Notes: generated by a model not told the origin, from the letters alone. 64,000 nucleotides of DNA from Gemmatimonas sp. (GCA_031414535.1 JANNVQ010000054.1:96001-160000), one strand, 5' to 3'. Shown: positions 1-16,890, numbered from the stretch's first letter. Translations and numbers: made by a program.

Positions 1-2
1 TC

Positions 3-1736
3 GCGTCCGCCCAGCGCGGTTATGTCCTGACGAGCGAACCCGATCAACTCCTGCGCTATGAGTCGGCGCTGAGGGCGTTTCGGTCCGATGCGACGGTGAT
101 TCGGGAGCAGATGCGCCACAACTTAGCCGTACTTAATCGGCTCGAGCGTGTTCAGGAGCAGGCCGTCCGCTACGACACGGAGATTGCCCGGCCAAACTTC
201 GTGGAAGTCCGCTCGAGTGGCCTGCTTGGATTTTCCCCGGGCTCGCCAGGGGCAGCGCGCGTGCGGCGTGGCATCGCACTCATGGAGAGCGTGCGCGTGG
301 AACACGCGCTCATGCTCAGAGAAGTGCGTGAGAACCGAACGCAGCTTGAGGCCGAGATTGAATTGGGGGAAGCCGCCGATGAATGGGAGAGCTTTCTCAT
401 TCGCGCGGCCGCCGTGGCGATTTTCTTTCTCGCCCTCATTCTTGTCATGCGCCTGCTCTCGCGCTCACTTTCCAAAGTGGTCGGAGCGGCCGAGGCGCTT
501 GAGGCAGGCCGCTACGACGAAGCGCGCCTGCCCTACCACCAGCGCGCTCCCAACGCGGAAATGGCGCGACTCGGTCTCACCTTCGACCGACTTGCCATCA
601 GCATTGCCACCCGCGAGCGGCAGCTGCAGGACGACATCGAACAGTTAAAAGATCTCGAACGCCTGAAGACGGACTTCGTCTCGACGGTGAGCCACGAGTT
701 GCGCACGCCACTGACCTCGATGCGCGGGGCGCTCGGGCTACTGCTCGGCGGTGCCGGCGGCGACTTGAGCCCCAAAGGCCGCGAGTTGTTGCGCATCGCG
801 CTCACCAACACCGACCGGCTGATTCGGCTCATCAACGACATTCTCGACATCGAAAAAATTGACGCCGGACACGTGCAGATTCGGCGCGACCGCTTGCTTC
901 TTCGTCCCCTGCTCGAAACGACGCTGGCCGGCCTCGATGGGTATGCCCGCGATGCCGGCGTCACGCTCGAGTTGCGCGACGTCCCCGAGCTGGAGCTTAT
1001 CGGCGACGGTGACCGCCTGATCCAGGTGTTCACGAACCTGATTTCGAATGCTGTGAAGTTCTCGCCGAGGGAAGCGGCTGTGGAGGTGCGGGCACTCGTC
1101 GAAGGCGATGCCGTGCGGGTCTGCGTGCGCGACCACGGCCAAGGCATCCCAGCGGAGTTTGCCTCACGCATCTTCGGGCGCTTCCAGCAGGCTGGCGGTG
1201 CCGCCTCGCGTCGTAGCGGAGGCACGGGCCTCGGGCTCAGCATTGCGAAGGCCATCACAGAACTGCACGGCGGACGCATCGGCTTCGAGAACGCTGAGGG
1301 TGGCGGTACGGTGTTCCAAGTACAACTGCCCATCGCCCCGGCGCCGGAAGGCAATGAGGATGCGCGCCCCGTGCTGCTCATCGTCGAGGACGACGATTCC
1401 ATGCGTACGGTTATGTCCACGCTGTTCGGGCCCTACGCGCATTCGATCACGGTGCCTGATGCCGTCGGTGCCATGAAGGCCTTGAACAAGCACAAGGTGC
1501 GCGTGCTCATCGTGGACCACGGCCTGCCGGGCATGGATGGCCTAGCCTTCTCGCGACGTCTGCGCGCGGACCCGCGGTTCCGCGCCCTGCCCATCATCCT
1601 CTACTCGGCCATCGAGTTCTCGCAAGAGGATCTGCGGGACTCGGGGATTCGCATTGGCGATGCCTTCGTGAAGACCCGGGACTCGGAGCAGTCGCTGCTG
1701 GAGCGGGTGAAACGCGAGATTCAGGGCAGTACCTGA
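3..1736 (+). CDS. Hybrid sensor histidine kinase (CHASE3-TM-HAMP-HisKA-HATPase-REC); 5' end lies outside the window
   Basis: Frame is open from the window edge (ASAQRGYVLT, CHASE3-like). H-box VSHELRTPLTS, N-box NLISNAVKFS, G1 DHGQGI, G2 GGTGLGL, C-terminal receiver (IVEDDD...IVDHGLPGMDG). Confidence 0.9.
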   Translation, partial: ASAQRGYVLTSEPDQLLRYESALRAFRSDATVIREQMRHNLAVLNRLERVQEQAVRYDTEIARPNFVEVRSSGLLGFSPGSPGAARVRRGIALMESVRVEHALMLREVRENRTQLEAEIELGEAADEWESFLIRAAAVAIFFLALILVMRLLSRSLSKVVGAAEALEAGRYDEARLPYHQRAPNAEMARLGLTFDRLAISIATRERQLQDDIEQLKDLERLKTDFVSTVSHELRTPLTSMRGALGLLLGGAGGDLSPKGRELLRIALTNTDRLIRLINDILDIEKIDAGHVQIRRDRLLLRPLLETTLAGLDGYARDAGVTLELRDVPELELIGDGDRLIQVFTNLISNAVKFSPREAAVEVRALVEGDAVRVCVRDHGQGIPAEFASRIFGRFQQAGGAASRRSGGTGLGLSIAKAITELHGGRIGFENAEGGGTVFQVQLPIAPAPEGNEDARPVLLIVEDDDSMRTVMSTLFGPYAHSITVPDAVGAMKALNKHKVRVLIVDHGLPGMDGLAFSRRLRADPRFRALPIILYSAIEFSQEDLRDSGIRIGDAFVKTRDSEQSLLERVKREIQGST

Positions 1737-1757
1737 GGGACGCTCAATCCAAGAAAC

Positions 1758-3191
1758 TCAGCTGGGCTTCTTCGTGCCGAAGCCTTCGCGCGTCATCTTG
1801 CCCCAGCTCTCGACGCCTCGCAGATGCTTCCAGAAGCCCTCAAGGCGGTAGAGCACGGTCATCTGGCGGTAGCCGAGTCCTTCGATGAGGGCAAAGCCGA
1901 TGAGCACCCAAAAGTCGCTGCGTCGCCGGTAGCGCTTGAAGCTGACCTCCTCTAGCACCACGGCCCAGATGGAGAGGATGGTGCCGTAGCCAATGGCCAC
2001 GCCAAAGAAGAGGACGGCGAAGCCAGGGTCCACGGCACCGAGCGCGAGGCCAATGAACAATGCCACCCATCCAATCATTTCCACGACCGGCGCAATCATC
2101 TCACCAAAGACATAAAACGGAACGGCGAGCATGCCGATGCTGCCGTAGCGCGGATTGAACAACATGGTGCGATGCGTCCACATGGTCCCGATGAGTCCGC
2201 GATGCCATCGCTCGCGCTGACGACGCAGCACCAAGGTCGAGGCGGGGACCTCGGTCCACGCCACAGGATCGGGAATGAATGGCATCGTGGCCTTGATCCG
2301 ATTCTCGCGCAGGTACCGATGCAGCCGGACGACGAGGTCCATGTCCTCGGTCACGTTGCCCGTCTTGTAGCCTCCGATGGCGAGCAGGTACTCCTTGCGA
2401 AATAGACCGAAGGCGCCGGAGATGATGAGGTTGCCGCCAAGTTTGTTCCAGCCGAGTCGGCCGAACAGGAAGGCGCGGAGATACTCCACGACCTGACAGC
2501 CCACGAGCCATTGACGTGAGACGCGCGCATCCGTCACGCGTCCCATCTCGACGGTGCACGCGTTGGCCACGCGAATGGTTCCACCCACGGCCGCCACGTT
2601 GCTGCCGAGCAGGAAGGGTCGTGCCAAGCGCATCAAGGCATCGGGCTCAATCAGCGTGTCGGCATCCACCGCGACCACGAAGGGGTGACGCGCCGCATTC
2701 ATAGCCGCGTTGAGCGAGTCGGCCTTGCCCCCATTTTCCTTGTCAATGACGAGCAGCCGCGCGTGGCGGCGCGACCGATAGTACGCGCGCACATCCTTGG
2801 TACGAATGGTCACCGGAAACGCCGGCGGCACTTCGTACAGGTCAAACTCCTTCACAAGCGAGTTCATGGTCCCGTCTTTGGAGCCGTCGTTGACCACGAC
2901 GATTTCCAACTGGGGATACTCCAGCGTGAGGAAGGAGAGCAAGCTGGCCCCGATGGTCACTTCTTCGTTGTACGCTGGTACGAGGAGTGATAGGGGTGGC
3001 AGCGAGTCCGACGACAGCAGGCGCTGGAGATGCTCGTCGGCGGCGAGACGCCAGTGGCTCCAGAGCTCAGGAATGGAGAGCAAGAGCAGCACCGCGTAGC
3101 CCGTGCTCAGGATGAGCAAGTAGACGAGCGCGGTGACGTCGGTCCAGTACAGGACGTTGCGGATGGCTTCGACGATATTGGCGCCGCTCAT
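1758..3191 (-). CDS. Processive family-2 glycosyltransferase (PgaC/IcaA/cellulose-synthase-like membrane synthase)
   Basis: VPAYNEE, VNDGSKD, GGKADSLN, DADT (DxD), TEDMD, QRERW (QxxRW); one N-terminal and several C-terminal TM segments. Confidence 0.9.
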   Translation of the reverse strand: MSGANIVEAIRNVLYWTDVTALVYLLILSTGYAVLLLLSIPELWSHWRLAADEHLQRLLSSDSLPPLSLLVPAYNEEVTIGASLLSFLTLEYPQLEIVVVNDGSKDGTMNSLVKEFDLYEVPPAFPVTIRTKDVRAYYRSRRHARLLVIDKENGGKADSLNAAMNAARHPFVVAVDADTLIEPDALMRLARPFLLGSNVAAVGGTIRVANACTVEMGRVTDARVSRQWLVGCQVVEYLRAFLFGRLGWNKLGGNLIISGAFGLFRKEYLLAIGGYKTGNVTEDMDLVVRLHRYLRENRIKATMPFIPDPVAWTEVPASTLVLRRQRERWHRGLIGTMWTHRTMLFNPRYGSIGMLAVPFYVFGEMIAPVVEMIGWVALFIGLALGAVDPGFAVLFFGVAIGYGTILSIWAVVLEEVSFKRYRRRSDFWVLIGFALIEGLGYRQMTVLYRLEGFWKHLRGVESWGKMTREGFGTKKPS

Positions 3192-4258
3192 CCCTGCCCC
3201 ATCTCAAGAATGGCGCCATCCGAGAGGCCCGAGACCATCGTGGCCATGTCGCGGGCAAATCGATCGTCACCCTCCCGGGCGACGCGCAAGGCGGCACGGC
3301 CACGTTCTCCGAGTTGCGCGAGTGCGAGCGCAGCATGCAGGCGCACTTGCCACACGGGATCCCGTATCAGCGGGGCGAGCAATGGCGTGGCGCCGCTGGC
3401 GCCGAGTTCGCCGAGGGAGCGCGCCGCGGCCGCACGCACGGTCGCGTCGGGGTCGCCCACCAGCTGGGCGAGGGCGCGCGCCGCTTCGGGGCCGGCAAAG
3501 CGTCCAAGCGCACGCGCCACGGTGCGCCGCACGAATGCCGCGGGATGCGCGATGTGCGCGAGTGACGACGCAATCGCGCGCGGATCATCCAACGACGCCG
3601 CGAGCGAGATCCATGCCGCGAGCTCATTGGGTCTGGCCCCGGCGCGAATTCGCTGCGCCAATTGCTCACCCGCGGCTGTCGCGCGCTGACGGAGCACCGT
3701 GGTGAGAAAGTTGCGCGTCACCTTGGGCATGGAGAACAGGTCATCCATCACCTGGCCAAAGAGTGCGGCATCGGCCACGCGCGGGAGTGCCGACACCGCG
3801 GCGATCTGCACGGCCGGATGCTGGTCGCGCAGGAGTTCCCGCACCGCCTCGCTGTCCTTTGACGTCCCGATAATCGAAAGCGCGCGGCCGGCCTCCAGCC
3901 TCCGCCACCAAAAGCGCGACCGCCGACGCTCCACCGCAACGCGCATCCACGGTTCCCCGCGCAATGCGACGGCCAACTCGTTTCGCTGCGACTCCGGAAT
4001 CGTCTGCCGCGCCAGCAACGAGATGTAGCCAACCGCCGTGCCCCGAGGAAGCGCACGCAGTGCGCGCACCACCGGCTCCGGGTGCGCGCCGGCCACAATC
4101 CAGTCGCGCAAGGGACCCTCAAGTGCCGCACGGCCAGCCACGAAGGCCGTGCGCCGCTCGCGATCGTAGCGTCGGCGGACCAAGACAAAACCCAAGAGCA
4201 GCACCAGAAAAATCACCTGGACGATGCCGACGACCGCGAGGATGAAGGCGGCGTTCAC
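3188..4258 (-). CDS. Membrane-anchored HEAT-repeat protein
   Basis: N-terminal TM followed by RRR. Repeats DQHPAVQIAAVSAL, HPAAFVRRTVARAL, DPDATVRAAAARSL, DPVWQVRLHAALAL. Overlaps both neighbours by 4 nt. Confidence 0.85.
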   Translation of the reverse strand: MNAAFILAVVGIVQVIFLVLLLGFVLVRRRYDRERRTAFVAGRAALEGPLRDWIVAGAHPEPVVRALRALPRGTAVGYISLLARQTIPESQRNELAVALRGEPWMRVAVERRRSRFWWRRLEAGRALSIIGTSKDSEAVRELLRDQHPAVQIAAVSALPRVADAALFGQVMDDLFSMPKVTRNFLTTVLRQRATAAGEQLAQRIRAGARPNELAAWISLAASLDDPRAIASSLAHIAHPAAFVRRTVARALGRFAGPEAARALAQLVGDPDATVRAAAARSLGELGASGATPLLAPLIRDPVWQVRLHAALALAQLGERGRAALRVAREGDDRFARDMATMVSGLSDGAILEMGQG

Positions 4259-6177
4259 GCCGCCGGACCTCGCGTGCGCCAGCCCGCAATTTTCGCCATC
4301 AGCACCCGGAGGCTGACCGGTTTGGAGAGATAGTCCAAGGCCCCCGCGCGAATGGCCCGCAGTTGATCCGATTCCGTGGAATGCACCGACACGAACACCA
4401 CGCGGAACACACCAGGACGCTCGACGCGAAGGCGCTCATGCAGTGAGAATCCATCGAGGCCCGGAAGGTCCACATCGAGCAGCACCAGCGGAGAACGGCC
4501 TCGCACGCGCATGCCTCGCAACGCATCGAGCGCCTCGGGGCCATTCTGGTAGCGTGCCCAAGTGAGTCCACGGGCCGCCATGGCGAAGGTCATGAGGTCC
4601 GCGAGCGCGGCATCGTCCTCCACCACAATGACGTCCGGTGCGATGCCCGCGTCCGCGGGGTCCCAGCGGCGTACATAGGCGCCGGTGTCGCGCGCGGCGA
4701 GCCACGCTTCATCGGCAAGGCCCGCTAAGCGGATAGCCGAGGGATCAGCGCCGGGCGAGAGTTCCGCGATGCCAGCGCTCCACGGCACCACATCCACACG
4801 CGACGCTTCGGCGTACTGCTCCAGGCGCGTCAGCGCGACCGCGGCCTTCATCGGGAACAAGAACATCGCCGCCGTCTCATCATGGAAGCCCGCGAGCACC
4901 TGCTCAATGCCGAGGGCCGCGGCGAGCAGGCGCAACTCACGATGCCACAGCGCGGCGCGCTTCACGCCATCGGGTGGGTCAAGCGGTCGTACCACGGCCA
5001 AGGACATCGGGTTCGCGAGCGCTGCAGCGGCCGCCAATGCTTCATCGAAGGCCCGCACGGTGCGCTGGGGCAGCAGCAATCCCGTACCTGGGTGCACCCC
5101 GCTGGAGAGTTGGCGCTGACGCGACACCTCTAGCAGGCGCTCGATGCGCCGCAGGAGTTCCTCCGCCACCACGGGCTTGGACTGAAAGTCGTCGGCGCCC
5201 GCGACGAAGGCCGCGGTACGGGTGTCCACATCGGTGGAGCCAGACACCAGCACGATGGGAAGGTCCCGGTAGCGGTCGTCGCTCCTCAGCTGCTTGGTCA
5301 CCACCAATCCGTTGACGCCTGGCAACTCGATGTCGAGCAGGACCAGACCCGGCCGAACCTCGTCAATGGTGTTGATGATGTCGCGGGCATCGGTGCGGGA
5401 CTCCACAAACATCCCTTGGCGTTCGCACATGGCCCGCAGGAGGTCAATCATCGCGACATCATCGTCCACAATGAGCAGCGAGACGCCGACCAAACCCGTG
5501 TGCGTGGCCAAGGACTCCGCCATCAGCATGATCTCGCGCGGGTCGGTGCTCGCTTCGAGTAGGCGTGAGGACGCCGACCGCGGCGCGACGGCTCCATCTT
5601 TGCCCCGTAGTAGCAGGAGGGGCACACCCTCAGGCACTGAGAGCGCGACGTGGGCGCCCGCGACGACGATGGTGGGTTGCGTTGCTTCGAACACGGCGGC
5701 CACGCCCTGCGCGGTTACCTGCTCCACGGCATAGCCGCGGTGCATGGCCTCGGCCACGATGCCCGGTGCGACCTCTTCTGATACCTCCACGAGCAGCAGG
5801 CGCTGCTCCGGAACCTCGCCAGCGGGCGCAGGTGTTTCGGCGCCCTCGGGACGCAGCGAAGCACCAAGCGCGCGTACAAACTGGCGCACGATTCCAGCGC
5901 GCCGATCGTGGTCCATAGATGCATCCGCTGCCCAACGCACGGCGACCGGCTCCAAGGCGCCGGCCAAACGGCTCGCTTCGTGAAATCCATATGACCCGGC
6001 GGTGCCGTGCACGCGATGCAGCTCACGGCGAAGCGCATCCACGACCTCGGGAGCGGCCGGGTCTCGACTCAACTGCTCGGCGAGTTGGGAAAAGGCCGTC
6101 AGCGTGTTGCCACTCGAGGCCAGATACTTCTCACGGAGTTGTTTGAGGACTGCCGAGAGATCTGCCGGGCCGACCAT
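4255..6177 (-). CDS. Multidomain phosphorelay protein: Hpt - pseudo-REC - REC - degenerate GGDEF - REC
   Basis: Hpt LHRVHGTAGSYGF; REC IVDDD/LLDIELPG/SKP; GGDEF remnants HPGTGL...FHDET...SAGIA...ADEAWLAARDTG; terminal REC VVEDD/LLDVDLPG/SKP. Start moved to ATG 6177 because the track extension overlaps the opposite-strand REC gene. Confidence 0.8.
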   Translation of the reverse strand: MVGPADLSAVLKQLREKYLASSGNTLTAFSQLAEQLSRDPAAPEVVDALRRELHRVHGTAGSYGFHEASRLAGALEPVAVRWAADASMDHDRRAGIVRQFVRALGASLRPEGAETPAPAGEVPEQRLLLVEVSEEVAPGIVAEAMHRGYAVEQVTAQGVAAVFEATQPTIVVAGAHVALSVPEGVPLLLLRGKDGAVAPRSASSRLLEASTDPREIMLMAESLATHTGLVGVSLLIVDDDVAMIDLLRAMCERQGMFVESRTDARDIINTIDEVRPGLVLLDIELPGVNGLVVTKQLRSDDRYRDLPIVLVSGSTDVDTRTAAFVAGADDFQSKPVVAEELLRRIERLLEVSRQRQLSSGVHPGTGLLLPQRTVRAFDEALAAAAALANPMSLAVVRPLDPPDGVKRAALWHRELRLLAAALGIEQVLAGFHDETAAMFLFPMKAAVALTRLEQYAEASRVDVVPWSAGIAELSPGADPSAIRLAGLADEAWLAARDTGAYVRRWDPADAGIAPDVIVVEDDAALADLMTFAMAARGLTWARYQNGPEALDALRGMRVRGRSPLVLLDVDLPGLDGFSLHERLRVERPGVFRVVFVSVHSTESDQLRAIRAGALDYLSKPVSLRVLMAKIAGWRTRGPAA

Positions 6178-6210
6178 AGCGAAGCAAAGGGTTAGAGGGA
6201 CAGCGCCGTC

Positions 6211-6216
6211 TATAAT
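6211..6216 (+). promoter_or_regulatory. Possible sigma70 -10 box in the divergent intergenic region
   Basis: Exact TATAAT in GC-rich DNA, 110 nt upstream of the 6326 start; no clear -35. Confidence 0.35.
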
Positions 6217-6325
6217 GCAGGAAGTATCGCCCGCTCTCGGCCCGCCGGACACCCCCACTGTCAGAAAGAAACGCAAAGTGAATCCAGCCGTTGCCCCACC
6301 CGACGCGGCCCCACACTTTTCGTAG

Positions 6326-6691
6326 ATGAAACTGCTCTGCGCCGACGACGAACCCGACATCCGCATCATTCTGGAACTGGCACTCGGCCTTGAGCCAAGA
6401 ATCCACGCCGAAGTCCTCGCCTCTGGCATCGAGTTGCTGGAAAAGGTGAAGAACTTCAAGCCGGACGCTATTCTGCTCGACGCGATGATGCCCGACGTGG
6501 ACGGATACGAGACGTGTCGGCGCTTGAAGGCGGATCCCGAGACGGCGGCCATACCCGTGGTGTTTCTCACGGCTCGGGCGCAACGCGGCGAGCAGGACAC
6601 CGCCATCGAGGTTGGTGCGGTGGCCTGCATGACCAAGCCGTTTGATCCACTCACGCTTGCCGGCGAGTTACTAGTCACGCTCGGCCGCTGA
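6326..6691 (+). CDS. Single-domain CheY-like response regulator
   Basis: ADDEPD, LLDAMMPDVDG, FLTA, TKPFD; 121 aa. Confidence 0.92.
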   Translation: MKLLCADDEPDIRIILELALGLEPRIHAEVLASGIELLEKVKNFKPDAILLDAMMPDVDGYETCRRLKADPETAAIPVVFLTARAQRGEQDTAIEVGAVACMTKPFDPLTLAGELLVTLGR

Positions 6692-6741
6692 GCTGACCCG
6701 TTGTGATCACTGCGCGGCGCATTTCAGGGCAGGTTTGGATT

Positions 6742-9411
6742 ATGCGAACTGCCACGCTCGCGCTGGGTGCTTGCGTATGCGTCAGCGCTGTGCTTGGCGC
6801 CCAGCAGCCGGCCTCCTCCACACGCTGCGACATCAGCACTGCCAACGCGGCGATTGACGCCGGCTGGGAGGCGTGGCGCCTCAACAACATTGCGAGGGCC
6901 GATTCCCTTTTTCGCCGTGGGGTCATTGCCTGCCGGGAGGCGAGGCGCGGCTGGACTGGTCTGGGTTATGTGGCCCTCCGTCGTGACTTACTTCCGCTCT
7001 CGGTAGCGCGCTTCGACACAGCCTTCGCCGTCGACAGCACCCGCGACGCAGACGAAGCCATTGGCCTCGGCCTCGCGACCTTCCGTTTAGGCAACTTCGC
7101 GCGCGCGCGTGCAGCGTTTCTTCTCGCGGATTCGCTTGCACCGGGAGATGCACTCGTTGCCGACTACCTGCGACGCCTCCCCGCCCCCGTTGATGCGGCG
7201 GCCCTGCCGACGCGCCCGCGACCCACGGAGCGCGTGATTGCCGCGCGGACGGGCAAGCGCATACTCGAAGTCCCCGATGGCCGCGGTGGATGGCGGCCAT
7301 TGTGGGTGAAGGCCGTGAACCTCGGCGCCGCACTTCCCGGTAAACATCCCAGCGAGTTTCCACCGGATGATGGCACATACGAGGGCTGGATTCGCGACAT
7401 CGCTGAGATGGGCGCCAACAGCGTTCGCGTCTATACCATTCATCCACCGCACTTCTACCGTGCGCTACGCGAGTGGAACACCACGCGCCCGGATTCCACG
7501 CTCTGGTTGATTCACGGGGTGTGGACGGAGCTTCCTCCGGGAGTGAAGGAAGAGCGCTACGATGATGTCAGGTGGAACGCCGCGTTCTTAGCGGAGATGC
7601 AACGCGTTGTTGATCTCCTGCACGGCCACGCCGCTATCGCGCCGCGTCCTGGGCATGCCAGCGGGATGTACACGGCAGACGTGTCGAGTTGGACCATTGG
7701 CTACATCCTCGGGCGCGAGTGGGAGCCTTACTCCGTACAGGCTTACGCCGCCCTGCATCCGACGCGTCGCACGTTTGCCGGCCGCTACGTGCAGCTACAG
7801 AATGGCAATGCCGTGGACGTCTGGCTCGCTCAGGTCGCAGATTCTACCATCAGCTACGAGATGGCGCGCTGGAATACACAGCGCCCGATGGCCTACACCA
7901 ATTGGCCGACGCTCGATCCGCTGCGGCATCCAACTGAGACCTCGCGCGCCGAGGAAGCCGCGTGGCTCCAGCGTCGTCGTGAACGCGTACCAGAAGTTTC
8001 TAAGGAATACGACAACGACGTCATCGCACTCGACGCCACGTTGATGCGCAGCACCGCGGCGTTTCCTGCGGGACTCTTCGCATCGTTCCATGCGTATCCG
8101 TACTACCCAGAGTTCATGGTGCTTGATTCGGCGTACGCATCAGCTCGTTCTCCCGAGGGACCAAGCGCCTACTTTGGCTACCTGCAGGAGTTGGTGGCAT
8201 ATCACGGCGACATGCCCGTGATCATCTCGGAGTACGGTGTGCCGAGCTCGCGCGGCAACGCGCACTTGCAACCGCAGGGCTGGCATCACGGCGGGCACGA
8301 TGAACAGGCGCAGGCGGCCATCAATGCAAGGCTCACGCGAGACATCGCCGCGAGTGGTGCAGCCGGTGCAGGATTATTTGCCCTGATTGACGAGTGGTTC
8401 AAGAAGAACTGGCTGGTGATTGACTTTGAGCGCCCAGCTGAACGGAATCGTCTGTGGCTCAACGCGCTCGACGCCGAGCAGAACTACGGCGTGATTGCGC
8501 TGCGGGCGGGGCGCCGCGACTCCGCGATTGTCATTGATGGTCGCGGTGACGATTGGCGCGGACGTACGCCGATGTACCAGCAATCCGCCGACGCAGCGGC
8601 CACCTCAGATGCGCAGCGCGTGGAGGCCTTCTGGGTGCATTCCGATGAGGCCTACGTGTACCTGCGCGTAGATATGGGGCGCGTCGACTGGACGAGCACG
8701 CGAGTACTCGTGGGCATCGACACCTATCAGGCCTCACTCGGCGACACGCAGTTGCCGCGCGGCGGGAGCCGCGCGCCGGTAGGCATGGAATTTGTGCTCG
8801 ACCTTGGGGGGCCCAGCGACGCACGTCTCTTAGTGGACCGCGCGTACAACCTGTATCGCGCGGCGCCAATCGTCGGCACGCGGCCTCTGCGCACGCAGTC
8901 GGTGTACAACCGACCATTCCGTAGCCGCGCCAATACCGATGGGCTCTACGACACGCTCTGGGTCACGCCGAACCGCCGCACCTTTGGGCGCGACGGCCGC
9001 GTGTATGAAGCGCAGCGTCTAGAACGCAACCTGCTGCGGCACGCCCGGCAGCAGGAGACCACGCTGGCCGACTGGTACGCGGATTCGGCCACCGGTGTGA
9101 TTGAGATCCGGCTGCCCTGGGGGATGCTGCATGTCACCGATCCGTCGTCGCATCAAGTGCTGTTTGGTCTCGATGGCACGTACCCGGCGTCCGTGACGAC
9201 AGACGGGTTTCGATTCGTGGTGCAGGCAGTCGATAAGGCAACGCAGCAGCCGCAAGCATCGCTCCCGAGCGCAGCGGCCGGATTCGCCACACCGCCGCTA
9301 TGGCGATGGGCCGGCTGGGAGGAGCCGCGTTGGTACGCGGAGCGGAAGCCAGTGTTTGATGCGATGCGCGAAACCTTCCGTGCTATTCCCGACGCGGGAA
9401 TCCCGCGCTAA
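6742..9411 (+). CDS. Secreted TPR + clan GH-A TIM-barrel glycoside hydrolase/transglycosylase + C-terminal carbohydrate-binding (CBM9/DOMON-like) domain
   Basis: Signal peptide; TPR helices; KAVNLG, MGANSVRVYT, LGREWEP (candidate acid/base Glu), ISEYGVP (candidate nucleophile), DEWFK...EQNYG; IDGRGDDW...DEAYVYLRVD. Confidence 0.7.
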   Translation: MRTATLALGACVCVSAVLGAQQPASSTRCDISTANAAIDAGWEAWRLNNIARADSLFRRGVIACREARRGWTGLGYVALRRDLLPLSVARFDTAFAVDSTRDADEAIGLGLATFRLGNFARARAAFLLADSLAPGDALVADYLRRLPAPVDAAALPTRPRPTERVIAARTGKRILEVPDGRGGWRPLWVKAVNLGAALPGKHPSEFPPDDGTYEGWIRDIAEMGANSVRVYTIHPPHFYRALREWNTTRPDSTLWLIHGVWTELPPGVKEERYDDVRWNAAFLAEMQRVVDLLHGHAAIAPRPGHASGMYTADVSSWTIGYILGREWEPYSVQAYAALHPTRRTFAGRYVQLQNGNAVDVWLAQVADSTISYEMARWNTQRPMAYTNWPTLDPLRHPTETSRAEEAAWLQRRRERVPEVSKEYDNDVIALDATLMRSTAAFPAGLFASFHAYPYYPEFMVLDSAYASARSPEGPSAYFGYLQELVAYHGDMPVIISEYGVPSSRGNAHLQPQGWHHGGHDEQAQAAINARLTRDIAASGAAGAGLFALIDEWFKKNWLVIDFERPAERNRLWLNALDAEQNYGVIALRAGRRDSAIVIDGRGDDWRGRTPMYQQSADAAATSDAQRVEAFWVHSDEAYVYLRVDMGRVDWTSTRVLVGIDTYQASLGDTQLPRGGSRAPVGMEFVLDLGGPSDARLLVDRAYNLYRAAPIVGTRPLRTQSVYNRPFRSRANTDGLYDTLWVTPNRRTFGRDGRVYEAQRLERNLLRHARQQETTLADWYADSATGVIEIRLPWGMLHVTDPSSHQVLFGLDGTYPASVTTDGFRFVVQAVDKATQQPQASLPSAAAGFATPPLWRWAGWEEPRWYAERKPVFDAMRETFRAIPDAGIPR

Positions 9412-12188
9412 CGCCGCGGTAGACGCCGCAACTCCGCGCGCACCGCAACGGGATTGAGGTACAGCGACGACGCATCACGCGGTGCGCGCGCCGCAGCCTC
9501 CAGCCACGTCCGCGCCTCGGCGGTCCGACCGAGCGCGACGAGCGACTTCGCGAGATACCAGTTGCTCCGCGTGAAGCCGAGGCTCGGAAACACGATCGCC
9601 CGGCGGAACTCCGCCGCCGCATTCTCGTAGCGCTGGCGCGCCAGCCACGCGAGGCCCCGCACGTGATGATGCAGGTAATGGTCGCGCACATAACGACTCC
9701 GCGGCCCAAGTACCGCCAGCGTATCGGCGAGCGCGAACAAGCCGGTCGTGTCACCCGCCTCGTAACGGGCGGTCGCCGCGAGCGTGCGATTCCACACCAC
9801 GCGACGCGCCCGACCGGCTTCGGACTCGACGACTTGCGGGCGCGCGAACGCGATGGAATCGAAGATCGCCGCGGCCTGCGCACCGGCACCCCGCTCGAGG
9901 TGCACCACGGCCTCAAGCACCGTCGGCGGCGTCGTACCCGGACCGGCGCTTTGGCTGACCCGGCGATACGCTTGCGCCGCCGCAAGTGCACGATCGAATG
10001 CACCGGCATTCCGGTACATGATGGCACGATCCCAGAGCGAGGTTGGCGTTCGCCCGGCACTCGCGGGATCGAGTGTCGCTTCCACACCGGAAAAGGCCGC
10101 CGTATCGCCGCGCCTGCTGGCAGCCTGTAGCAGCCAGCCGCGCGATGCGGGAAATCCACGGTCGACATTCTCGGACACCAGCTTCTCCAACTCTCGGTGG
10201 CGATTCACATCGCGCTCCAAGAGGGACGCGAGGCGATGCCAGGCGAGGACGTCGTTGGGCGCGAGCTTGAGATACCGCTTCATCCAGCTCTCTGCCGCAG
10301 CCAAGGAATCTTGGTTCTCCGCCACCGTGACGATGTGCTGCACGGCTTCGCAGGCGTAGCAGCGGCCAGCGCCGCGGCCGATGCGTGCGCTGTCCGCCAC
10401 CCATACGGACAGCAGCGCCGCGTGCGCCCGTGCGAAGTCGCCCCGCTGGAACAGTGCGGGGCCGGCCGTGCCCATTCGCACTTCAAGGTCGTTGGGATAA
10501 CGCGCCGCCAAGGTGTCGAAAATCGCATCGGCCGCCGGATCATTCATCTCGACGAGCCACGTCGCCCGGATCAGCATTGCGTCGCGCGGCGCGGCGCGTT
10601 GCTGCATGCGCATGGCAAGTTCGAGGAAGGCGCGCGATTCCCGGCCGCCCTCGGGGAGCATGCCCGACAGCGCCAGCGCAGCGAGCGCGAAGGTGCTGTC
10701 CTCGGCCAAGGCGCCGCGTAGCTGAGCGCGCGCCGCGTCATCCCGGCCCTCGGATTGGGCGCGACGCGCGGCTTGGTAGAGGCGCCAGGCCTCGAGCGAT
10801 TTGGTGGAGACTTCCGCCACGGAAGTGCTCGGTGCGCTGCGCGAGAGGGATTGCAGCAGCTGCACCGACGCAGAGTCCACGAGCGCGAACGCCCCGCTGG
10901 CCTCGCTCCGATACGCAGCCACAACCACACCCCGCGTGAGTTCGATGCGCCGCAGATCGAGCCGCCAACGCGCCCCGTCGCGCAGGATAGTCCCCTCGAT
11001 GAGTTCTTGCGCGCCTGCCTCACGCGCCGCGCGAAGCGAGGCCCCGGCCGCGGCTTCGGCCCCCGCCTGCAGTTCCATCATCCGCGCGGCACTCACCACC
11101 GCGATTCCCTCCGCGCGCGCGAGATTCGTGGCGAGCATGCTCGCGATCGTTTCCCCAATTGCGTCGCCACCGATGGTACCGACGGCGAGCACGGGCACCG
11201 TGTCAGCCACCGCCGCTTGCGGCGCTCCGTCCTTCCCCACTCCTCGCAAGCCGAGCGCAACAATCGCCATCACCACCGCGAACACGGAGACGATGGCAAA
11301 CACCGGCCAACGCGGCGGTGCGGGCCTCGGGGCCGCCACTGGCTCTTTGTCCTCGCGAATCTCGGCAACAGGATCGGCAACTCTTTGCGATGCCACCGGC
11401 ACTTCCACTGCAGGCATCGTCGGTGCAAGCATCGTTGGCGCAGGAGGCGGCGACGACACCTCGCCGCGCTGCAACTCCTCCATCAGCCTCAGCACCTCCG
11501 CCGAGGGGGCCGCCTCCAGTTCCTGCTGCACAAGCACAGCGTGGATACGAAGCTGCCGGATCCCGGCCTCACGGTCACCTGAGGCCACCAGAGCACGCGC
11601 AAAGTCCACGGCGGCTCGTCCCGAGAGCGGATCTGCATTTGCGAGGAGCCGCCGGAGCCGCACCGACCGGACGGAGTCGCCTGCGCGTGCCGCTTGCTCT
11701 GCAACGCGGCTCGCGACGGCCCTCCATTTCTGTTCGCATTCATTACGGGATTCCTCGGACCAGAACTCGAATTCCCGCACTTCTGGTAGTTCAAATCCTT
11801 CAAGCAGCGGTGCCGTCCGGAGGTCAGCGGCGGCTCCTTCGGCACCCTCCTTTACCTGCCGCAGAAAATCCCAGTAGTCGCACGACAGCCGATCCTCGTT
11901 CAGCCGGAGATCGGTGGAGCCGAGCACCACATCGTCAGTGCCCAAGTCGCGGCGAATCGCATACAAGGCCTGACTCAACGCTGCTCGGCCACGCTCCTGA
12001 TCATCCCCAGGCCAAAGGATGGAGAGCAGACGCTCGCGCGAGACCGCCGGCCTCCCTGGGGGAGCCTCGACCGCCAACACCGCCACCAGTGCGAGCCGGC
12101 GCCGTTGGGCCAGCGAGCCGCCGACTTGGGCCCCGTCTCGCCAAACACCGGGCGCACCGAAGAGCTGTATTCGCAACGAGTTAGGCAC
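9408..12188 (-). CDS. Transmembrane SARP/BTAD-family transcriptional regulator with extracytoplasmic TolB_N/FlgO-like and TPR region
   Basis: N-terminal wHTH (SRERLLSILWP...ALSQALYAIRRDLG), BTAD (DPLSGRAA...ELEAAPS), Pro-rich linker, TM WPVFAIVSVFAVVMAIVALGL, STKSLEAWRLY, TPRs. Confidence 0.8.
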   Translation of the reverse strand: MPNSLRIQLFGAPGVWRDGAQVGGSLAQRRRLALVAVLAVEAPPGRPAVSRERLLSILWPGDDQERGRAALSQALYAIRRDLGTDDVVLGSTDLRLNEDRLSCDYWDFLRQVKEGAEGAAADLRTAPLLEGFELPEVREFEFWSEESRNECEQKWRAVASRVAEQAARAGDSVRSVRLRRLLANADPLSGRAAVDFARALVASGDREAGIRQLRIHAVLVQQELEAAPSAEVLRLMEELQRGEVSSPPPAPTMLAPTMPAVEVPVASQRVADPVAEIREDKEPVAAPRPAPPRWPVFAIVSVFAVVMAIVALGLRGVGKDGAPQAAVADTVPVLAVGTIGGDAIGETIASMLATNLARAEGIAVVSAARMMELQAGAEAAAGASLRAAREAGAQELIEGTILRDGARWRLDLRRIELTRGVVVAAYRSEASGAFALVDSASVQLLQSLSRSAPSTSVAEVSTKSLEAWRLYQAARRAQSEGRDDAARAQLRGALAEDSTFALAALALSGMLPEGGRESRAFLELAMRMQQRAAPRDAMLIRATWLVEMNDPAADAIFDTLAARYPNDLEVRMGTAGPALFQRGDFARAHAALLSVWVADSARIGRGAGRCYACEAVQHIVTVAENQDSLAAAESWMKRYLKLAPNDVLAWHRLASLLERDVNRHRELEKLVSENVDRGFPASRGWLLQAASRRGDTAAFSGVEATLDPASAGRTPTSLWDRAIMYRNAGAFDRALAAAQAYRRVSQSAGPGTTPPTVLEAVVHLERGAGAQAAAIFDSIAFARPQVVESEAGRARRVVWNRTLAATARYEAGDTTGLFALADTLAVLGPRSRYVRDHYLHHHVRGLAWLARQRYENAAAEFRRAIVFPSLGFTRSNWYLAKSLVALGRTAEARTWLEAAARAPRDASSLYLNPVAVRAELRRLPRR

Positions 12189-12284
12189 AGGTGAGACTGA
12201 GGTGAGAGCCTGGGCGAATCGGCGTGAGGGCGCCGACGAATATATCGCCGCGTCCCTTACTCACAACCTGTTTTGGAGGTTCCA

Positions 12285-13214
12285 GTGTTCCGTTCTACTC
12301 GACTCACCGCATCGCTACTGCTGGCCGTGCTGGCTGCCTGCGACCCGGCATCAGCACCGCTCACTCCGCCCCTCGAGCCACTGCCGCCGCCGCTGACGCC
12401 GGGCGTCTGGCATCTCGTGCAGGCCGACGGCCAGCCCCTTCCTGCCTACGTCGCTCACCGCCTCGTCGGAGGACAGCTTGAGCAGGTGTACGTAGACTCC
12501 GCGCGCATTGAACTCGACCAACAAGGCCGGTGGACTCAAAGCATCTTCCGCCGCGTCCTTCGCGACGGCCAACTGCAGTACCGCGAAGTGTGGTTCGATC
12601 AAGGCGTCTCCACTCCCTCCGCAGAGACCTACACCTTCACGTCAAATGGCGGGAGCCGAGTCGCGACGGTCAACAACCGTACGGCTGGGCGCCTAGACGT
12701 GATTGAGCCCATGGTCGTGTGGCCGGGTTCCGGACTCGTGGCCTCGAGATACGAACCGCGTCGCAGCGTAACCGTCCCCCCAGGGGACTCGTCTGGCACG
12801 GTTGTCACCATGACGGCGTTCCGTGCCGTGTCAGCGAACGGCGCAGCGCTGCCTGCGGTTGTGCTTGAGATCGACGACGAGCCAGCGGAAGGTAACGGGA
12901 CGAGATTCCTGCTCGACTCGGCGTGGGTGAGCCTTTCCAGCGACGGCACATATCGCCGTACGGTGGCCTACTCGGAGTGGCAGTCGCCGAACCCAGCGCT
13001 GGGATTGGGATGGACGAAGTTCGGAAGCACGAGGCGCTTGGACTGGGGCAGCTTCACGCGGAACGACAAGAACATCACGCTCACCAGCGCGTACTTCCAG
13101 AATTTCGTCGTGACGGGCGAGCTGCGCGCTGACGGCAAGCTGCTGCTGCAGCATGGGCTTGAGCCGCGTGATGAGATGTCGCTCACGGTGTCCTACGATC
13201 GCATCATACCGTGA
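12285..13214 (+). CDS. Lipoprotein with two tandem lipocalin-like beta domains
   Basis: GGAGG RBS before GTG 12285; lipobox VLAAC; internal repeat (ADGQPLPA...DSARIELDQQG...DQG vs ANGAALPA...DSAWVSLSSDG...DWG). Confidence 0.7.
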   Translation: MFRSTRLTASLLLAVLAACDPASAPLTPPLEPLPPPLTPGVWHLVQADGQPLPAYVAHRLVGGQLEQVYVDSARIELDQQGRWTQSIFRRVLRDGQLQYREVWFDQGVSTPSAETYTFTSNGGSRVATVNNRTAGRLDVIEPMVVWPGSGLVASRYEPRRSVTVPPGDSSGTVVTMTAFRAVSANGAALPAVVLEIDDEPAEGNGTRFLLDSAWVSLSSDGTYRRTVAYSEWQSPNPALGLGWTKFGSTRRLDWGSFTRNDKNITLTSAYFQNFVVTGELRADGKLLLQHGLEPRDEMSLTVSYDRIIP

Positions 13215-14116
13215 GCGCCGTGTCCCTCAGGAGATTCGGGTTCTGTAGCCTCGTCGTGGCGCTGAGTGCCTGTGCCACGACGGGGGCTACGCTGGGCAGC
13301 GGTGTGGGCGATGCGATGCTCTCGCAGCCTCCTTGGTACGCGGGAGCACGCACCACGCCCACTAGCCGCCCCGACGTGCCCGTCGGCGCCTTGCCCATCA
13401 TGTACCAGACGCGAGACGGACGCGGGGAGATCTTCGATCCGCAGGGTGCCCCGGGTTCAGCGATTGCGACCCTGCTGGAGGAGATGAACGCGTTCTTGCC
13501 TTCGCTCACGGCGAGCAACGCAGTCCCCCTGCGACTGCTCTCCGGCGCGTCGGTGGGAACGCCGCCGGACGTCCGCTTTGGTTGTTTGACGGAGGGTAAT
13601 CTGCCGGGCGAGGAGTGCGTCGCGCGGGGCGATAGCGTCTTGGGTCGCATTCCAAACCTCAATCAGATGAAGCTCGAAGTCGGCCGGCCGTCGCCCGAGT
13701 GGACGGCCTCGGCCTCGGCGGAGGCGGCGAAGCATGGCGTGGACTACACGCTCGTCATCGCATTGGAAGTCGGCGAGTACGTCATCCGTCAGACGGGAAT
13801 GGCTGGCAACAAGTCCGTGGACCTCGGCAGCAACCACGTCCAGTCTCTGCCTTGGCTGACATCACTAGAGCAACCGGTCCAAGTGCTTCAGCTGACCGGG
13901 GCACTGGTGGGTCGAGATGGCAAGGCGATTCGGATCGGTGCCGAAGGCGTGATCGCGAAGCGTACGCCCATCGTTGCGAGCGGCTTTGGGGTGAGCGCAT
14001 TGATTAGCGACGCCGATGTCGAGCTGCTGCGTACACGGCGACGGGAGGACTTACCCGGTAATCCGCTCGCGTGGCAGGAAGCGCTGCGTGAGCTCGTGCG
14101 GGGACTCACTCGCTAA
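13211..14116 (+). CDS. Hypothetical lipoprotein
   Basis: Lipobox ALSAC; GTGA overlap with the upstream gene. Confidence 0.7.
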   Translation: MSAVSLRRFGFCSLVVALSACATTGATLGSGVGDAMLSQPPWYAGARTTPTSRPDVPVGALPIMYQTRDGRGEIFDPQGAPGSAIATLLEEMNAFLPSLTASNAVPLRLLSGASVGTPPDVRFGCLTEGNLPGEECVARGDSVLGRIPNLNQMKLEVGRPSPEWTASASAEAAKHGVDYTLVIALEVGEYVIRQTGMAGNKSVDLGSNHVQSLPWLTSLEQPVQVLQLTGALVGRDGKAIRIGAEGVIAKRTPIVASGFGVSALISDADVELLRTRRREDLPGNPLAWQEALRELVRGLTR

Positions 14117-14151
14117 GGATTCTGGACGTGCTGGAGGCATCTTGCGATGCT

Positions 14152-15687
14152 CTAGAACGTCCAGCGCCCCGTGAGCGTCGCTGCGCCGTAACGATAGTCG
14201 CTCGCCGTGATAGCACCCGCACCAGCCACGTTTGCGTAGACGAGCCCGAACACGAGTTCGCGGCCCGGCGCGACCCTGTAGCCCACGCGCATCGCGCCGC
14301 GCGGGACCACACTGCGACTCACCGGATTGCTCTCGAATGCGACACCCTGGCTTGCGAGCGCGAGGTCACCCGCAAGCACGAGCCCGAGTTCAGCAGGCCG
14401 CTCCCAACTGAGCGCCGCCTCCGTGATGGACCATGTCTGTGGCGCGAAAAATACCCCGAACTCCGGAGCGTCCCAGGATACTTGGCGCTGCGAGAGCGAG
14501 AGTTGCGTGCCGCGGCGTGGGAGGAATCGCAAGGATCCCATGATCGTGCTCCGCGACGCGATGACGTCGGGGCTGCCATCCACGACGCCGGCGGTTCCAG
14601 ACAGACCAAGGTGCCAGCGCGGAGCCAGAATGTAGTTGGCGTCCACATCGAACACGCTAAACATCAGTCCGCGAGACGCGGTGCTCAGTACTTCGTCGAA
14701 CGGTTCGCGATTGCCTCCCGCCGATAGGCGGAGCTTGCCACCGACGACACCGGCCCCTCGTACGCCACCGCGCAGACGCAGCGTCTCACCGGGAACGGTG
14801 GACGGGAAAGACACCGCCCCAAAGTCAGCTCGCCACGTGATGCCGAGTGCCGCAGGCCGCCAAGAGGCGTGAATCAGCGCACCCGGCACCACGATGGCAT
14901 CCACGTCCGAGACGCTCGCTTCGCGCAGACGCGCCGTAGCGCCAGCGCGAACCCCATGCCACATCGGGAGCAGCACGCCAACTTCACGATGCCAGAGCGT
15001 GTTGCGCTCGGAATCCTTTGCCCCGACCATCTGAAAGGTGGCCGCAAGATTCAGATCCGCTTTCACCCACGCCATCTGCTCTCGTGCCGCGCGATCATTC
15101 GGGGCAATCGCGAGCGCGCGCGTCAGTGCCTGCTCCGCCGCGCGCGTTTCGCCCCGCCAGCGACGGAATTGCCCGAGAAGAGTCCAGGCTTCGGTATCGT
15201 CCGCGCGGCGCTCCACCCAGCGCTCGAGTGTCGCTTCGCCCTCGGGGATGCGGTCACTCCAGGCGAGGGTCTGCGCTCGGCCCAGCACCGCGTCCCGATA
15301 ATTGGCGTCGCGCGCGAGCACCGAGTCGTACTGCGCCAGCGATTCGGGAATGCGCGAGGCCCACGCGTAGGTGCGACCCAGCGCAACGCGCCCCTCGAGA
15401 TCATCAGGCTCGGCGCGTATGTAGCGCCGCTGTGCAGCGATGGCAGCGCCAAAACGATTGCTCCAGGCGTGCAGCAACCCAACGCGGAAGAGCGCACGCG
15501 TGGAATACACGGAATCCGCCCGCACCACGGCGTCGTAGGCCGTGAATGCCGCAGGATGGTCTTCGCGCGTCCAGGCTGAATCGCCACGCGCGAGCAGCGT
15601 CGCAAGATCATCACGCGACGGCGGCGACTGCGCGGCCACACTCCCTGCCCAGAAGGCGAGGGCAAGGAGTGTCGACGCGCCCTGCAT
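14152..15687 (-). CDS. TPR + outer-membrane beta-barrel protein (PgaA/BcsC/YaiO-like architecture)
   Basis: Signal peptide; TPRs with a recurring Trp (LLHAWSNR, TYAWASR, TLAWSDR, FRRWRGE); amphipathic beta strands; C-terminal beta-signal ATLTGRWTF; TAATG overlap with the upstream gene. Confidence 0.75.
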   Translation of the reverse strand: MQGASTLLALAFWAGSVAAQSPPSRDDLATLLARGDSAWTREDHPAAFTAYDAVVRADSVYSTRALFRVGLLHAWSNRFGAAIAAQRRYIRAEPDDLEGRVALGRTYAWASRIPESLAQYDSVLARDANYRDAVLGRAQTLAWSDRIPEGEATLERWVERRADDTEAWTLLGQFRRWRGETRAAEQALTRALAIAPNDRAAREQMAWVKADLNLAATFQMVGAKDSERNTLWHREVGVLLPMWHGVRAGATARLREASVSDVDAIVVPGALIHASWRPAALGITWRADFGAVSFPSTVPGETLRLRGGVRGAGVVGGKLRLSAGGNREPFDEVLSTASRGLMFSVFDVDANYILAPRWHLGLSGTAGVVDGSPDVIASRSTIMGSLRFLPRRGTQLSLSQRQVSWDAPEFGVFFAPQTWSITEAALSWERPAELGLVLAGDLALASQGVAFESNPVSRSVVPRGAMRVGYRVAPGRELVFGLVYANVAGAGAITASDYRYGAATLTGRWTF

Positions 15688-16253
15688 TACTTGGCCGACC
15701 AATCCGCCGCGAGGTCAAGACGGCCCCAGCTGATGCTGAGCACGCCGCGCGCGGAAGTACCGTCAACCGGCACCATCACGATCTGCAGGGACTCCTGCAC
15801 TTCCGTGCGCGTACGAGCGCGCAGCGGCACGCGGGCAAAGTCCTTGGTGGCATCGTACTCCGTGCCCCACTGGCCCGTGTTGTTGTTGATGATGAGGATG
15901 TACTGCCCGTTCTCGCGGATGGTGTAAAGCGAGTAGTCACCGGCCGGCACATCCTTGCCACCGATGACGAGGTCAGTCTGCGTGCGCAGGGTGGTGGCAG
16001 CGTTGGCACCGGTGCGCCAGATCGTGCCGTCCGCCGCCAGCTCGGACGGGACGTCACGCCCGCGGGCGTGCGGTTGGCCGTATTCGATGGTGACATTCTT
16101 GGGCGTGGGCGCAGGCTGACCCTGCACACGGGCGGTGGCGAGAGGCATCGTGAAGACGACGCGCGTGCTCAACGGGGCGCGGAGGCCGCTCTGCTGAGCG
16201 GCGAGCGGAGCGGAGACGAGCGCGAGAAGGGCGAGGGCCAGAACCGGACGCAT
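15687..16253 (-). CDS. DUF2911 family secreted protein
   Basis: Signal peptide; YGQPHARGR, WRTGANAAT, PAGDYSLYTI, QWGTEYD. Confidence 0.85.
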   Translation of the reverse strand: MRPVLALALLALVSAPLAAQQSGLRAPLSTRVVFTMPLATARVQGQPAPTPKNVTIEYGQPHARGRDVPSELAADGTIWRTGANAATTLRTQTDLVIGGKDVPAGDYSLYTIRENGQYILIINNNTGQWGTEYDATKDFARVPLRARTRTEVQESLQIVMVPVDGTSARGVLSISWGRLDLAADWSAK

Positions 16254-16360
16254 TGGTTTTTGTTATTGAAGGTGAATTCCGAGCGCCACAATCAGGGGCG
16301 CAGCACCGTTAAGATACCCCAGAGCAGGATGGGCGTCCAAGCTCCTGCCCACCGCTCCTT

Positions 16361-16382
16361 TTCCGTCATCCGTCATCCGTCC
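16361..16382. repeat. Heptamer REP-like repeat, family A, single arm
   Basis: TTCCGTC ATCCGTC ATCCGTC C, ending 1 nt before the ATG at 16384. Confidence 0.75.
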
Positions 16383-16383
16383 A

Positions 16384-16824: not shown

Positions 16825-16890
16825 ACGGGCAGACGACGGGAACCTTTTGTTAAGCAAAGAGTAAGTTATTCGCTGGACAGGACATCACCT

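Follow-up and report, generated by a model that had tools for sequence, protein, structure and literature searches.

A glycosyltransferase and HEAT-repeat cassette with a conserved upstream receiver in a Gemmatimonadaceae genome: a candidate phosphorelay-controlled polysaccharide synthesis and secretion system

We analysed a 64,000-nucleotide stretch of a Gemmatimonadaceae genome (Gemmatimonas sp., JANNVQ010000054.1, contig C54, 96001-160000), here called the window, and in it a gene cluster predicted to make and export a polysaccharide, which combines a family-2 glycosyltransferase (GT2), a membrane-anchored HEAT-repeat protein and the parts of a phosphorelay. The source genome is 3.7 Mb long and 98 % complete. 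Genes were called by listing open reading frames (ORFs), supplemented by Pfam searches of 13 and NCBIfam searches of 10 locus proteins. The main features of the locus are the following:

3..1736, plus strand: hybrid sensor kinase with CHASE3, transmembrane (TM), HisKA, HATPase and REC parts (Pfam); the whole gene encodes 658 aa
1758..3191, minus strand: GT2, processive-type synthase, 477 aa (Pfam Glyco_tranf_2_3)
3188..4258, minus strand: membrane-anchored HEAT-repeat protein, 356 aa (Pfam HEAT_2)
4255..6177, minus strand: relay protein Hpt-REC-(decayed GGDEF)-REC, 640 aa (Pfam and alignments)
5833..6177, minus strand: Hpt domain of the relay protein (Pfam Hpt, 1.8e-7)
5122..5481, minus strand: REC1, first receiver of the relay protein (Pfam Response_reg, two stretches)
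4642..5109, minus strand: decayed GGDEF-like domain of the relay protein (positional homology, hhalign)
4258..4641, minus strand: REC2, C-terminal receiver of the relay protein (alignment, wide conservation)
6326..6691, plus strand: CheY-like single-domain receiver, 121 aa (NCBIfam and Pfam receiver matches)
6742..9411, plus strand: tetratricopeptide-repeat (TPR) protein with a glycosidase fold, 889 aa, predicted secreted (fold of the AlphaFold2 model)
14152..15687, minus strand: predicted TPR-barrel outer-membrane export porin (fold of the AlphaFold2 model)

All genes named in the original prediction, made from the DNA alone, turned out to be real ORFs, each with family or fold support. The coordinates agree with the proposed operon running from the relay protein through the HEAT protein to GT2, with 4-nt overlaps at both junctions. 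The kinase beside it carries the expected CHASE3 hybrid architecture in Pfam and is convergent with GT2, with 21 nt between the two genes; its 5′ end lies 241 nt outside the window, so the gene is interrupted by the window edge. The CheY gene is divergent from the operon and lies upstream of the glycosidase-fold gene. A longer frame for the relay protein, an 807-aa ORF at 4255..6678, was rejected as an artefact of high G+C content, its first 167 residues being the reverse strand of CheY; the true start is at 6177. Scanning positions 1..17000 for promoters and terminators gave counts not clearly above those of shuffled sequences.

The locus was compared with two samples of relatives. The near set holds 12 genomes, 10 from the same genus and 2 from another family of the order. 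The wide set comes from a pattern scan with one genome per species, which yielded 599 stretches that fit the pattern; of these, the 80 best loci were analysed with local hidden Markov models (HMMs). These best 80 of the 599 stretches belong to Gemmatimonadota, Acidobacteriota, Chloroflexota, Nitrospirota, Actinomycetota (among them Pseudarthrobacter sp. L19 and Solirubrobacter soli DSM 22325), Cloacimonadota, Bacteroidota and Ignavibacteria. In addition, 30 unusually long GT2 relatives were scanned for added domains.

The core cassette is widespread and not unique to this locus. In the near set the HEAT gene is present in 12 of 12 genomes, GT2 in 11 (the contig of the twelfth ends first) and the long relay protein in 10, and in the two genomes of the other family the set is reduced to HEAT, GT2 and a short Hpt-REC protein. 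Gene-neighbourhood analysis had been named as a check on the original prediction, and the genes do co-occur across the 12 relatives and the 80 wide-set loci. The cassette is frequent among lineages of soil, sediment and freshwater, and it is found, too, in haloarchaea and in cultured strains of Mesorhizobium, Deinococcus, Pseudarthrobacter and Solirubrobacter. At MESCI_RS31990-32020 on pMESCI01 of Mesorhizobium ciceri WSM1271 we find kinase, two response regulators, YaiO barrel, HEAT and GT2, plus Hpt; on pRadio2 of Deinococcus radiophilus ATCC 27603 TPR, HEAT and GT2; and on a plasmid of the haloarchaeon Halosolutus gelatinilyticus a response regulator, a hypothetical gene, HEAT and GT2, with a nucleotidyltransferase gene and glmS after them. 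In the Mesorhizobium, Deinococcus and haloarchaeal plasmid records the cassette genes carry generic product names only. Pfam searches of 60 ORFs downstream of GT2 in other loci gave mostly no family and no consistent extra component.

GT2 matches Pfam Glyco_tranf_2_3 at 4e-26. Its best NCBIfam match is PgaC_IcaA (TIGR03937) at 125.1 bits against a cut-off of 422.3, and the CelA model TIGR03030 gives 40 bits against a cut-off of 699, so that the protein is an equivalog neither of PgaC/IcaA nor of BcsA/CelA. Searches of PDB by single sequence and by profile recovered partial matches to GT2 enzymes only, with no close solved relative, and the profile segments around QxxRW match BcsA. The original prediction had read the motifs of a processive enzyme (D, D, D, QxxRW) from this sequence, and conservation among 50 relatives bears it out: D102, D176/D178, E282-D283 and Q325-R-E-R-W329 are invariant or nearly so. 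One hydrophobic segment at the N-terminus and a cluster at the C-terminus flank the glycosyltransferase domain. The protein thus has the features of the membrane-embedded processive GT2 of synthase-dependent systems, with D, DxD, ED and QxxRW. Its family is large, with 22,098 matches at E <= 1e-3 and 1,434 at E <= 1e-30 (HMMER, 1.84 billion representatives). A longer form of 711 aa is found in another family of Gemmatimonadales (L015:15347-17482; L032-L034; P0242), in which some 240 residues without a Pfam match are added at the C-terminus.

The HEAT protein matches Pfam HEAT_2 at 4e-21. It has a single N-terminal TM segment (residues 1-31) followed by an Arg-rich stretch, and because the TM segment precedes this stretch, the HEAT domain is predicted to be cytoplasmic. 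The original prediction had put this protein in the position of the inner-membrane partner of the synthase, and the wide set agrees: the HEAT ORF lies directly upstream of GT2 in 73 of the 80 loci. Of the other seven, two do have HEAT, next to a GT2 ORF truncated at the contig end, four offer no DNA upstream of GT2, and L099 is the sole locus that lacks HEAT despite 2 kb of upstream DNA. Six of the 30 long GT2 relatives are fusions with HEAT (P0256, P0278, P0313, P0336, P0348, P0368), placed before or after GT2; the other fused domains are a YaiO barrel (4), TPR (4), a sulfatase-type domain (3) and SPOR (1). The fusions therefore give Rosetta-stone support to GT2 and HEAT acting as a physical pair. 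In the reverse direction, a HEAT profile search for longer proteins was swamped by generic HEAT-repeat proteins, and none of the 120 proteins listed carried a GT2 or receiver Pfam identifier.

The regulator encoded upstream of HEAT is conserved above all in its C-terminal receiver. Within the genus (11 sequences), the Hpt His54 is invariant and stands in LHRxxGTAGxxG, the REC1 acceptor Asp282 is nearly invariant, with REC1 degenerate in 2 of the 11, and D568, S597 and K619 of REC2 are invariant or nearly so. The segment between Hpt and REC1 (residues 124-232) was considered as a pseudo-receiver and rejected, hhalign giving it a probability of 1.9 % against the receiver alignment. In 58 of the 80 wide-set loci the gene immediately upstream of HEAT, in the same orientation, is a receiver-type ORF; in most of the remaining loci either the upstream DNA is missing or one gene separates the receiver from HEAT. 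Pfam recognised Response_reg in all 58 of these regulators, Hpt in 28 and GGDEF in 21, and all 57 regulators aligned end in a receiver. The last 130 residues, compared between the window and 57 relatives, keep the acceptor Asp in 52 of 58, Lys in 57 and Thr/Ser in 57.

A kinase homologue, full or partial, stands in the same place in 9 of the 12 near relatives, and about 20 of the 80 wide-set loci have a kinase-core homologue no more than 7 kb away. CheY is present in 10 of the 12, and small CheY-like ORFs adjoin the cassette in 27 of the 80. Five loci from distant phyla (L053, L057, L059, L075, L076) show the order kinase, CheY, regulator, HEAT, GT2 on one strand. By Pfam and alignments the window locus holds the full set of phosphorelay parts: a hybrid kinase with its own REC, Hpt with its His, and a terminal receiver with Asp, Thr/Ser and Lys. 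In domains and residues this corresponds to a multi-step His-Asp phosphorelay, and phosphotransfer between the parts is predicted. Upstream of the kinase, at 37..5884 of L105 (G000:C54:90001-97800), there are genes for transaldolase, pyruvate kinase, a metallo-beta-lactamase-fold protein and phosphoglucose isomerase and, as a gene of its own, one for a REC-Hpt protein of 288 aa; in L036 the transaldolase and pyruvate kinase genes come immediately after GT2.

Because the receiver is coupled to HEAT in the operon, is the one part of the regulator that is never lost and keeps its acceptor residues, gating of the synthase by the phosphorelay is plausible. The relay protein and CheY might instead be co-transcribed with the synthase and act elsewhere, as a phosphate sink or on another output, with HEAT as a constitutive structural subunit. 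This would agree with receivers that have no output domain and with the scan of the 30 long relatives, in which no receiver was found fused to GT2 or to HEAT, a result that counts against a direct contact of the receiver with the synthase. We nevertheless consider it improbable: the receiver gene ends at or overlaps the start of HEAT across phyla (the 58 loci above, with the 4-nt overlaps in the window), the C-terminal receiver is retained where other parts of the regulator are gone, and kinase and CheY accompany the cassette in the five distant loci.

Gating by the receiver has also to be set against control by cyclic di-GMP (c-di-GMP), for which the middle domain of the relay protein (residues 357-512) is informative. 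It gave no Pfam match even at E <= 10 and none by PDB profile search. It occupies the exact position of the Pfam GGDEF found in 21 of the 58 related regulators, and hhalign of its alignment against the true GGDEF domains of relatives returned a probability of 61 %, E 8e-5, over 139 columns. An Atlas feature search placed GGDEF clusters in 29 of 30 matches, which we take as a lead only. FHDET replaces GG(D/E)EF and LGIE replaces RxxD in the window lineage, so both sites are gone, and the domain has neither the PF00990 match nor the GG(D/E)EF of a diguanylate cyclase. Because of the positional homology, the hhalign match and the loss of the catalytic motif and RxxD, the domain is, as judged from these alignments, a dead GGDEF and a relic of an Hpt-REC-GGDEF-REC ancestor. 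A dead GGDEF had been proposed in the original prediction; the alignments bear this out, but the domain escapes both Pfam and PDB profiles. Outside the locus the genome has 9 GGDEF matches.

The main rival explanation starts from the same domain. It supposes that c-di-GMP made by other cyclases still activates GT2-HEAT or the regulator, and that the receiver protein is mainly a tether, with phosphorylation as tuning. Several observations weigh on its side and against receiver gating. In the 21 regulators mentioned above, GGDEF lies between two receivers, and their motifs, read from the alignment, are canonical GG(D/E)EF in 5, GGEEI in 3, AGEEF in 1, [G/A]G[A/S/P][D/E]F in 9 and other variants in 3. 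RxxD at I-site spacing is kept in 20 of these 21, even where GG(D/E)EF has decayed to GG[A/S/P][D/E]F, and the ancestral regulator looks like a REC-GGDEF cyclase, so that in the family at large c-di-GMP may be the true activator. The 9 GGDEF matches elsewhere in the genome are a possible source of c-di-GMP, and PgaCD binds c-di-GMP at its subunit interface without a PilZ domain. On the other side, the relic in the window has lost both sites, and 37 of the 58 cassettes have regulators with no GGDEF, in which short Hpt-REC or REC-only forms keep only the receiver next to HEAT. PilZ was detected neither in the locus proteins (Pfam) nor in the 98 % complete genome, which extends to the whole genome the earlier statement that GT2 has none; with the relic devoid of RxxD, no recognisable c-di-GMP receptor was found on or beside the synthase. 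Moreover, a mere tether would not need the acceptor Asp that most of the receivers keep. We regard control by c-di-GMP as unlikely here, though it is the strongest of the competitors to phosphorelay gating.

The TPR protein downstream of CheY has no match in Pfam or NCBIfam, and its PDB sequence search gave chance-level matches only. The AlphaFold2 model (predicted local distance difference test score, pLDDT, 83) shows a signal-like N-terminus, TPR helices at residues 31-145, a (beta/alpha)8 core at about 175-545 and a C-terminal beta-sandwich region. The best Foldseek match in PDB is a member of glycoside hydrolase (GH) family 157 at E 2e-8. VIA-align gave Z 26.7 and a root-mean-square deviation (rmsd) of 3.2 over 308 residues for GH157, and Z 22-25 for GH2 glucuronidases, GH5 mannanases, GH72 and GH164, all of clan GH-A. 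In enzymes of this clan the acid/base Glu follows strand 4, and strand 7 carries the nucleophile Glu. In the model, E328 (in REWEP, just after the strand at 318-323) and E497 (in SEYG, in the strand at 493-498) are found at these strands, and both are invariant in 35 sequences, so the core is predicted to be of clan GH-A. Fold and residues together fit a predicted retaining glycosidase. By sequence the protein falls in no existing GH family, and it may represent a new one. The family is large and very conserved: 2,691 proteins match at E <= 1e-3, and over the core the 120 best are at least 67 % identical. A homologue of this protein is also present in the cultured Gemmatimonadaceae species Pseudogemmatithrix spongiicola. 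The original prediction had described a secreted protein made of TPR, a GH-A domain and a carbohydrate-binding module (CBM); signal peptide, TPR and GH-A fold are supported, but for the part called a CBM the model shows no more than a beta-sandwich region. Deacetylase families were absent from the locus proteins in the Pfam and NCBIfam scans, in line with the earlier remark that none is visible.

The product of 14152..15687 has the fold of an exopolysaccharide porin. Its AlphaFold2 model (pLDDT 91) contains a signal peptide, about 6 TPR units and 16 beta-strands, and the top five Foldseek matches in PDB are BcsC (9b8a, 9b8h, 6tzk), PelBC (9h80) and PgaA (4y25). Against PgaA 4y25 the alignment has TMt 0.76 and rmsd 3.9 over 311 columns; the PgaA model TIGR03939 scores 37 bits against a cut-off of 367, and an Atlas search gave a PgaA_barrel lead that agrees with the fold. 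Model and PDB matches thus place the protein with the TPR-containing outer-membrane beta-barrels of synthase-dependent systems. The gene is present in 7 of the 12 near relatives at good score, with 2 weaker matches, and in most of them it is the immediate neighbour of the glycosidase-fold gene or of CheY. In the window three genes separate it from the glycosidase-fold gene:

9408..12188, minus strand: BTAD-like/TM/TPR protein, 926 aa (weak Pfam BTAD and TPR matches)
12273..13214, plus strand: ORF without family match, 313 aa (ORF call)
13211..14116, plus strand: ORF without family match, 301 aa (ORF call)

These genes (9408..14116) have a counterpart in none of the loci of the 12 relatives and are therefore a lineage-specific insertion and not part of the system. 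The barrel reported in the original prediction is confirmed, but its distance of 4.7 kb has no functional meaning, as it reflects the three-gene insertion. The 926-aa protein combines its weak BTAD match with one TM segment and TPRs.

Every role of a synthase-dependent system had been claimed for the locus, and the locus does have a processive-type GT2 with an inner-membrane partner, a TPR porin and, for the periplasm, a glycosidase-fold protein. The glycosidase-fold enzyme belongs to the system, because homologues without TPR adjoin GT2 in three Actinomycetota loci (L078, L090, L103). The locus very probably encodes a synthase-dependent system for a beta-linked polymer, the linkage being suggested by the pairing of an inverting GT2 with a retaining clan GH-A fold. 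Some observations do not sit easily with this. The glycosidase-fold gene is found in 7 of the 12 relatives and is absent from 3 of the 10 genus loci, one of which has neither this gene nor the barrel gene; both genes are therefore accessory. The hints at the identity of the polymer conflict as well: similarity to PgaC and glmS beside the haloarchaeal cassette point to GlcNAc, while likeness to GH157 and a GH16 neighbour in L090 point to beta-glucan.

The gene orders behind these hints are the following. In L090:5618-8946 (Rubrobacteraceae) GT2 is followed by the glycosidase-fold homologue and then GH16, which hints at a beta-glucan product. On the Halosolutus gelatinilyticus plasmid (L107, 7606..10580) a sugar-phosphate nucleotidyltransferase and glmS follow the cassette, which hints at a hexosamine product. 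Two Bacteroidota loci (L081, L085) have sulfatase-family TPR proteins and a TPR-YaiO barrel after GT2; their sulfatase-TPR genes are reminiscent of polymer-modifying transferases in other systems.

A product that is not secreted was also considered: GT2 could make a periplasmic, wall-linked or lipid-linked glycan, with the barrel and glycosidase-fold genes as neighbours with another role. The core cassette does occur without a barrel in monoderm Actinomycetota and in the haloarchaeon, and the two Gemmatimonadales loci from the other family have no barrel or glycosidase-fold gene nearby with the queries used. We find this explanation very improbable, since barrel or TPR modules are fused to GT2 in relatives, the best structural matches of the barrel are exopolysaccharide porins, and genes for barrel and glycosidase-fold proteins are repeatedly found next to the cassette.

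We therefore return to the synthase-dependent system under phosphorelay control and propose the following course of events. GT2 and HEAT would form the inner-membrane synthase. Phosphate would pass from the CHASE3 kinase to its own REC, then to Hpt and finally to the relay protein's C-terminal REC; CheY would serve as a second phosphate acceptor or as a phosphate sink. The phosphorylated REC would act on the cytoplasmic HEAT domain or on GT2, and polymerisation would start. In the periplasm the chain would be trimmed or set free by the TPR-glycosidase, and it would leave the cell through the TPR-barrel. The GGDEF of the ancestral regulator would be a relic in the window lineage. That the locus encodes a synthase-dependent machine which makes and exports a beta-linked polysaccharide and is gated by the phosphorylated receiver encoded upstream of HEAT has, in our judgement, an even chance of being correct. 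A bolder version, which we put forward tentatively and which may well prove wrong, is that docking of the phosphorylated receiver on the cytoplasmic HEAT domain, and not c-di-GMP, opens a PgaC-like synthase, in an ancient cassette spread over more than ten phyla, haloarchaea included, which has repeatedly shed its cyclase and employs a new clan GH-A family.

If the receiver gates the synthase directly, this would be a new mode of post-translational control in which matrix production is tied to a sensor kinase, and the graded decay of GGDEF across relatives would be a natural series for the replacement of one control mode by another. The window contributes a complete locus that has a BcsC/PgaA-type porin, an enzyme with a clan GH-A fold that falls in no known family, and a regulator in which the decay of GGDEF is furthest advanced.

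Beyond the porin gene, a CarH-like MerR/B12-binding regulator (16940..17896) and an M19 membrane dipeptidase (17865..19091) keep their position in most relatives from the genus. Positions 19178..21502 encode a probable surface protein of 774 aa, which contains Big_2 and LVIVD repeats. A 324-aa Arg-rich frame at 15546..16520 was discarded as a spurious high-G+C ORF; it has no family match and overlaps the start of the porin gene.

The original prediction knew of no characterised system with this make-up, and none was found in the literature searched: full-text searches, with subscription-only papers outside their scope, returned no description of a HEAT-partnered GT2 synthase. The passages matched in two candidate papers (PMC12419801, PMC10434189) are irrelevant to a HEAT-partnered GT2 system. 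The locus can be compared with systems that differ from it in one part or another.

Synthase-dependent exopolysaccharide systems are the main models of how bacteria build a biofilm matrix, and to our knowledge those for cellulose, poly-N-acetylglucosamine, Pel and alginate are all activated through c-di-GMP receptors. The closest likeness in the synthase is to PgaABCD/HmsHFRS/IcaADBC: the best GT2 family is PgaC_IcaA, an inner-membrane partner gene lies beside the synthase, and the porin is, like PgaA, a TPR protein with a 16-strand barrel that matches 4y25. In contrast to Pga, GT2 and porin score far below the equivalog cut-offs, no PgaD and no PgaB-type deacetylase was found by Pfam or NCBIfam, the place of the partner is taken by a TM-HEAT protein of 356 aa, TPR are joined to a clan GH-A fold in the periplasmic enzyme, and a phosphorelay protein is found in place of c-di-GMP control.

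The cellulose system Bcs consists of BcsA-PilZ, BcsB, BcsZ and BcsC, with BcsE carrying degenerate REC and GGDEF domains. Our locus shares with it a processive GT2, a periplasmic protein with a glycosidase fold and a TPR-barrel porin, for which BcsC supplies the three best matches, and its regulator with a decayed GGDEF is reminiscent of BcsE. However, PilZ and BcsB are missing here, the glycosidase fold is of clan GH-A and not GH8, and the decayed GGDEF, unlike BcsE, has no RxxD-type site. Pel comprises the degenerate-GGDEF receptor PelD, which binds c-di-GMP at a retained I-site, the TPR-barrel protein PelB and the hydrolase PelA. A dead GGDEF in the regulatory subunit is common to both, and PelBC is the fourth-best match of the porin; but the I-site is lost here, the synthase is GT2 whereas PelF is GT4, and receivers, Hpt and HEAT have no Pel counterpart.

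On the side of regulation, the Hpt-REC-GGDEF-REC proteins of relatives with intact GG(D/E)EF and RxxD have the architecture of phosphorylation-activated cyclases such as PleD and WspR, and a separate CheY-like gene is a further likeness. They differ in the extra C-terminal receiver, which is always present and abuts the HEAT gene, while in the window the cyclase has decayed beyond detection by Pfam. The cassette thus shares the overall logic of the known systems, but has a HEAT protein as the inner-membrane partner and receiver and Hpt domains as its input.

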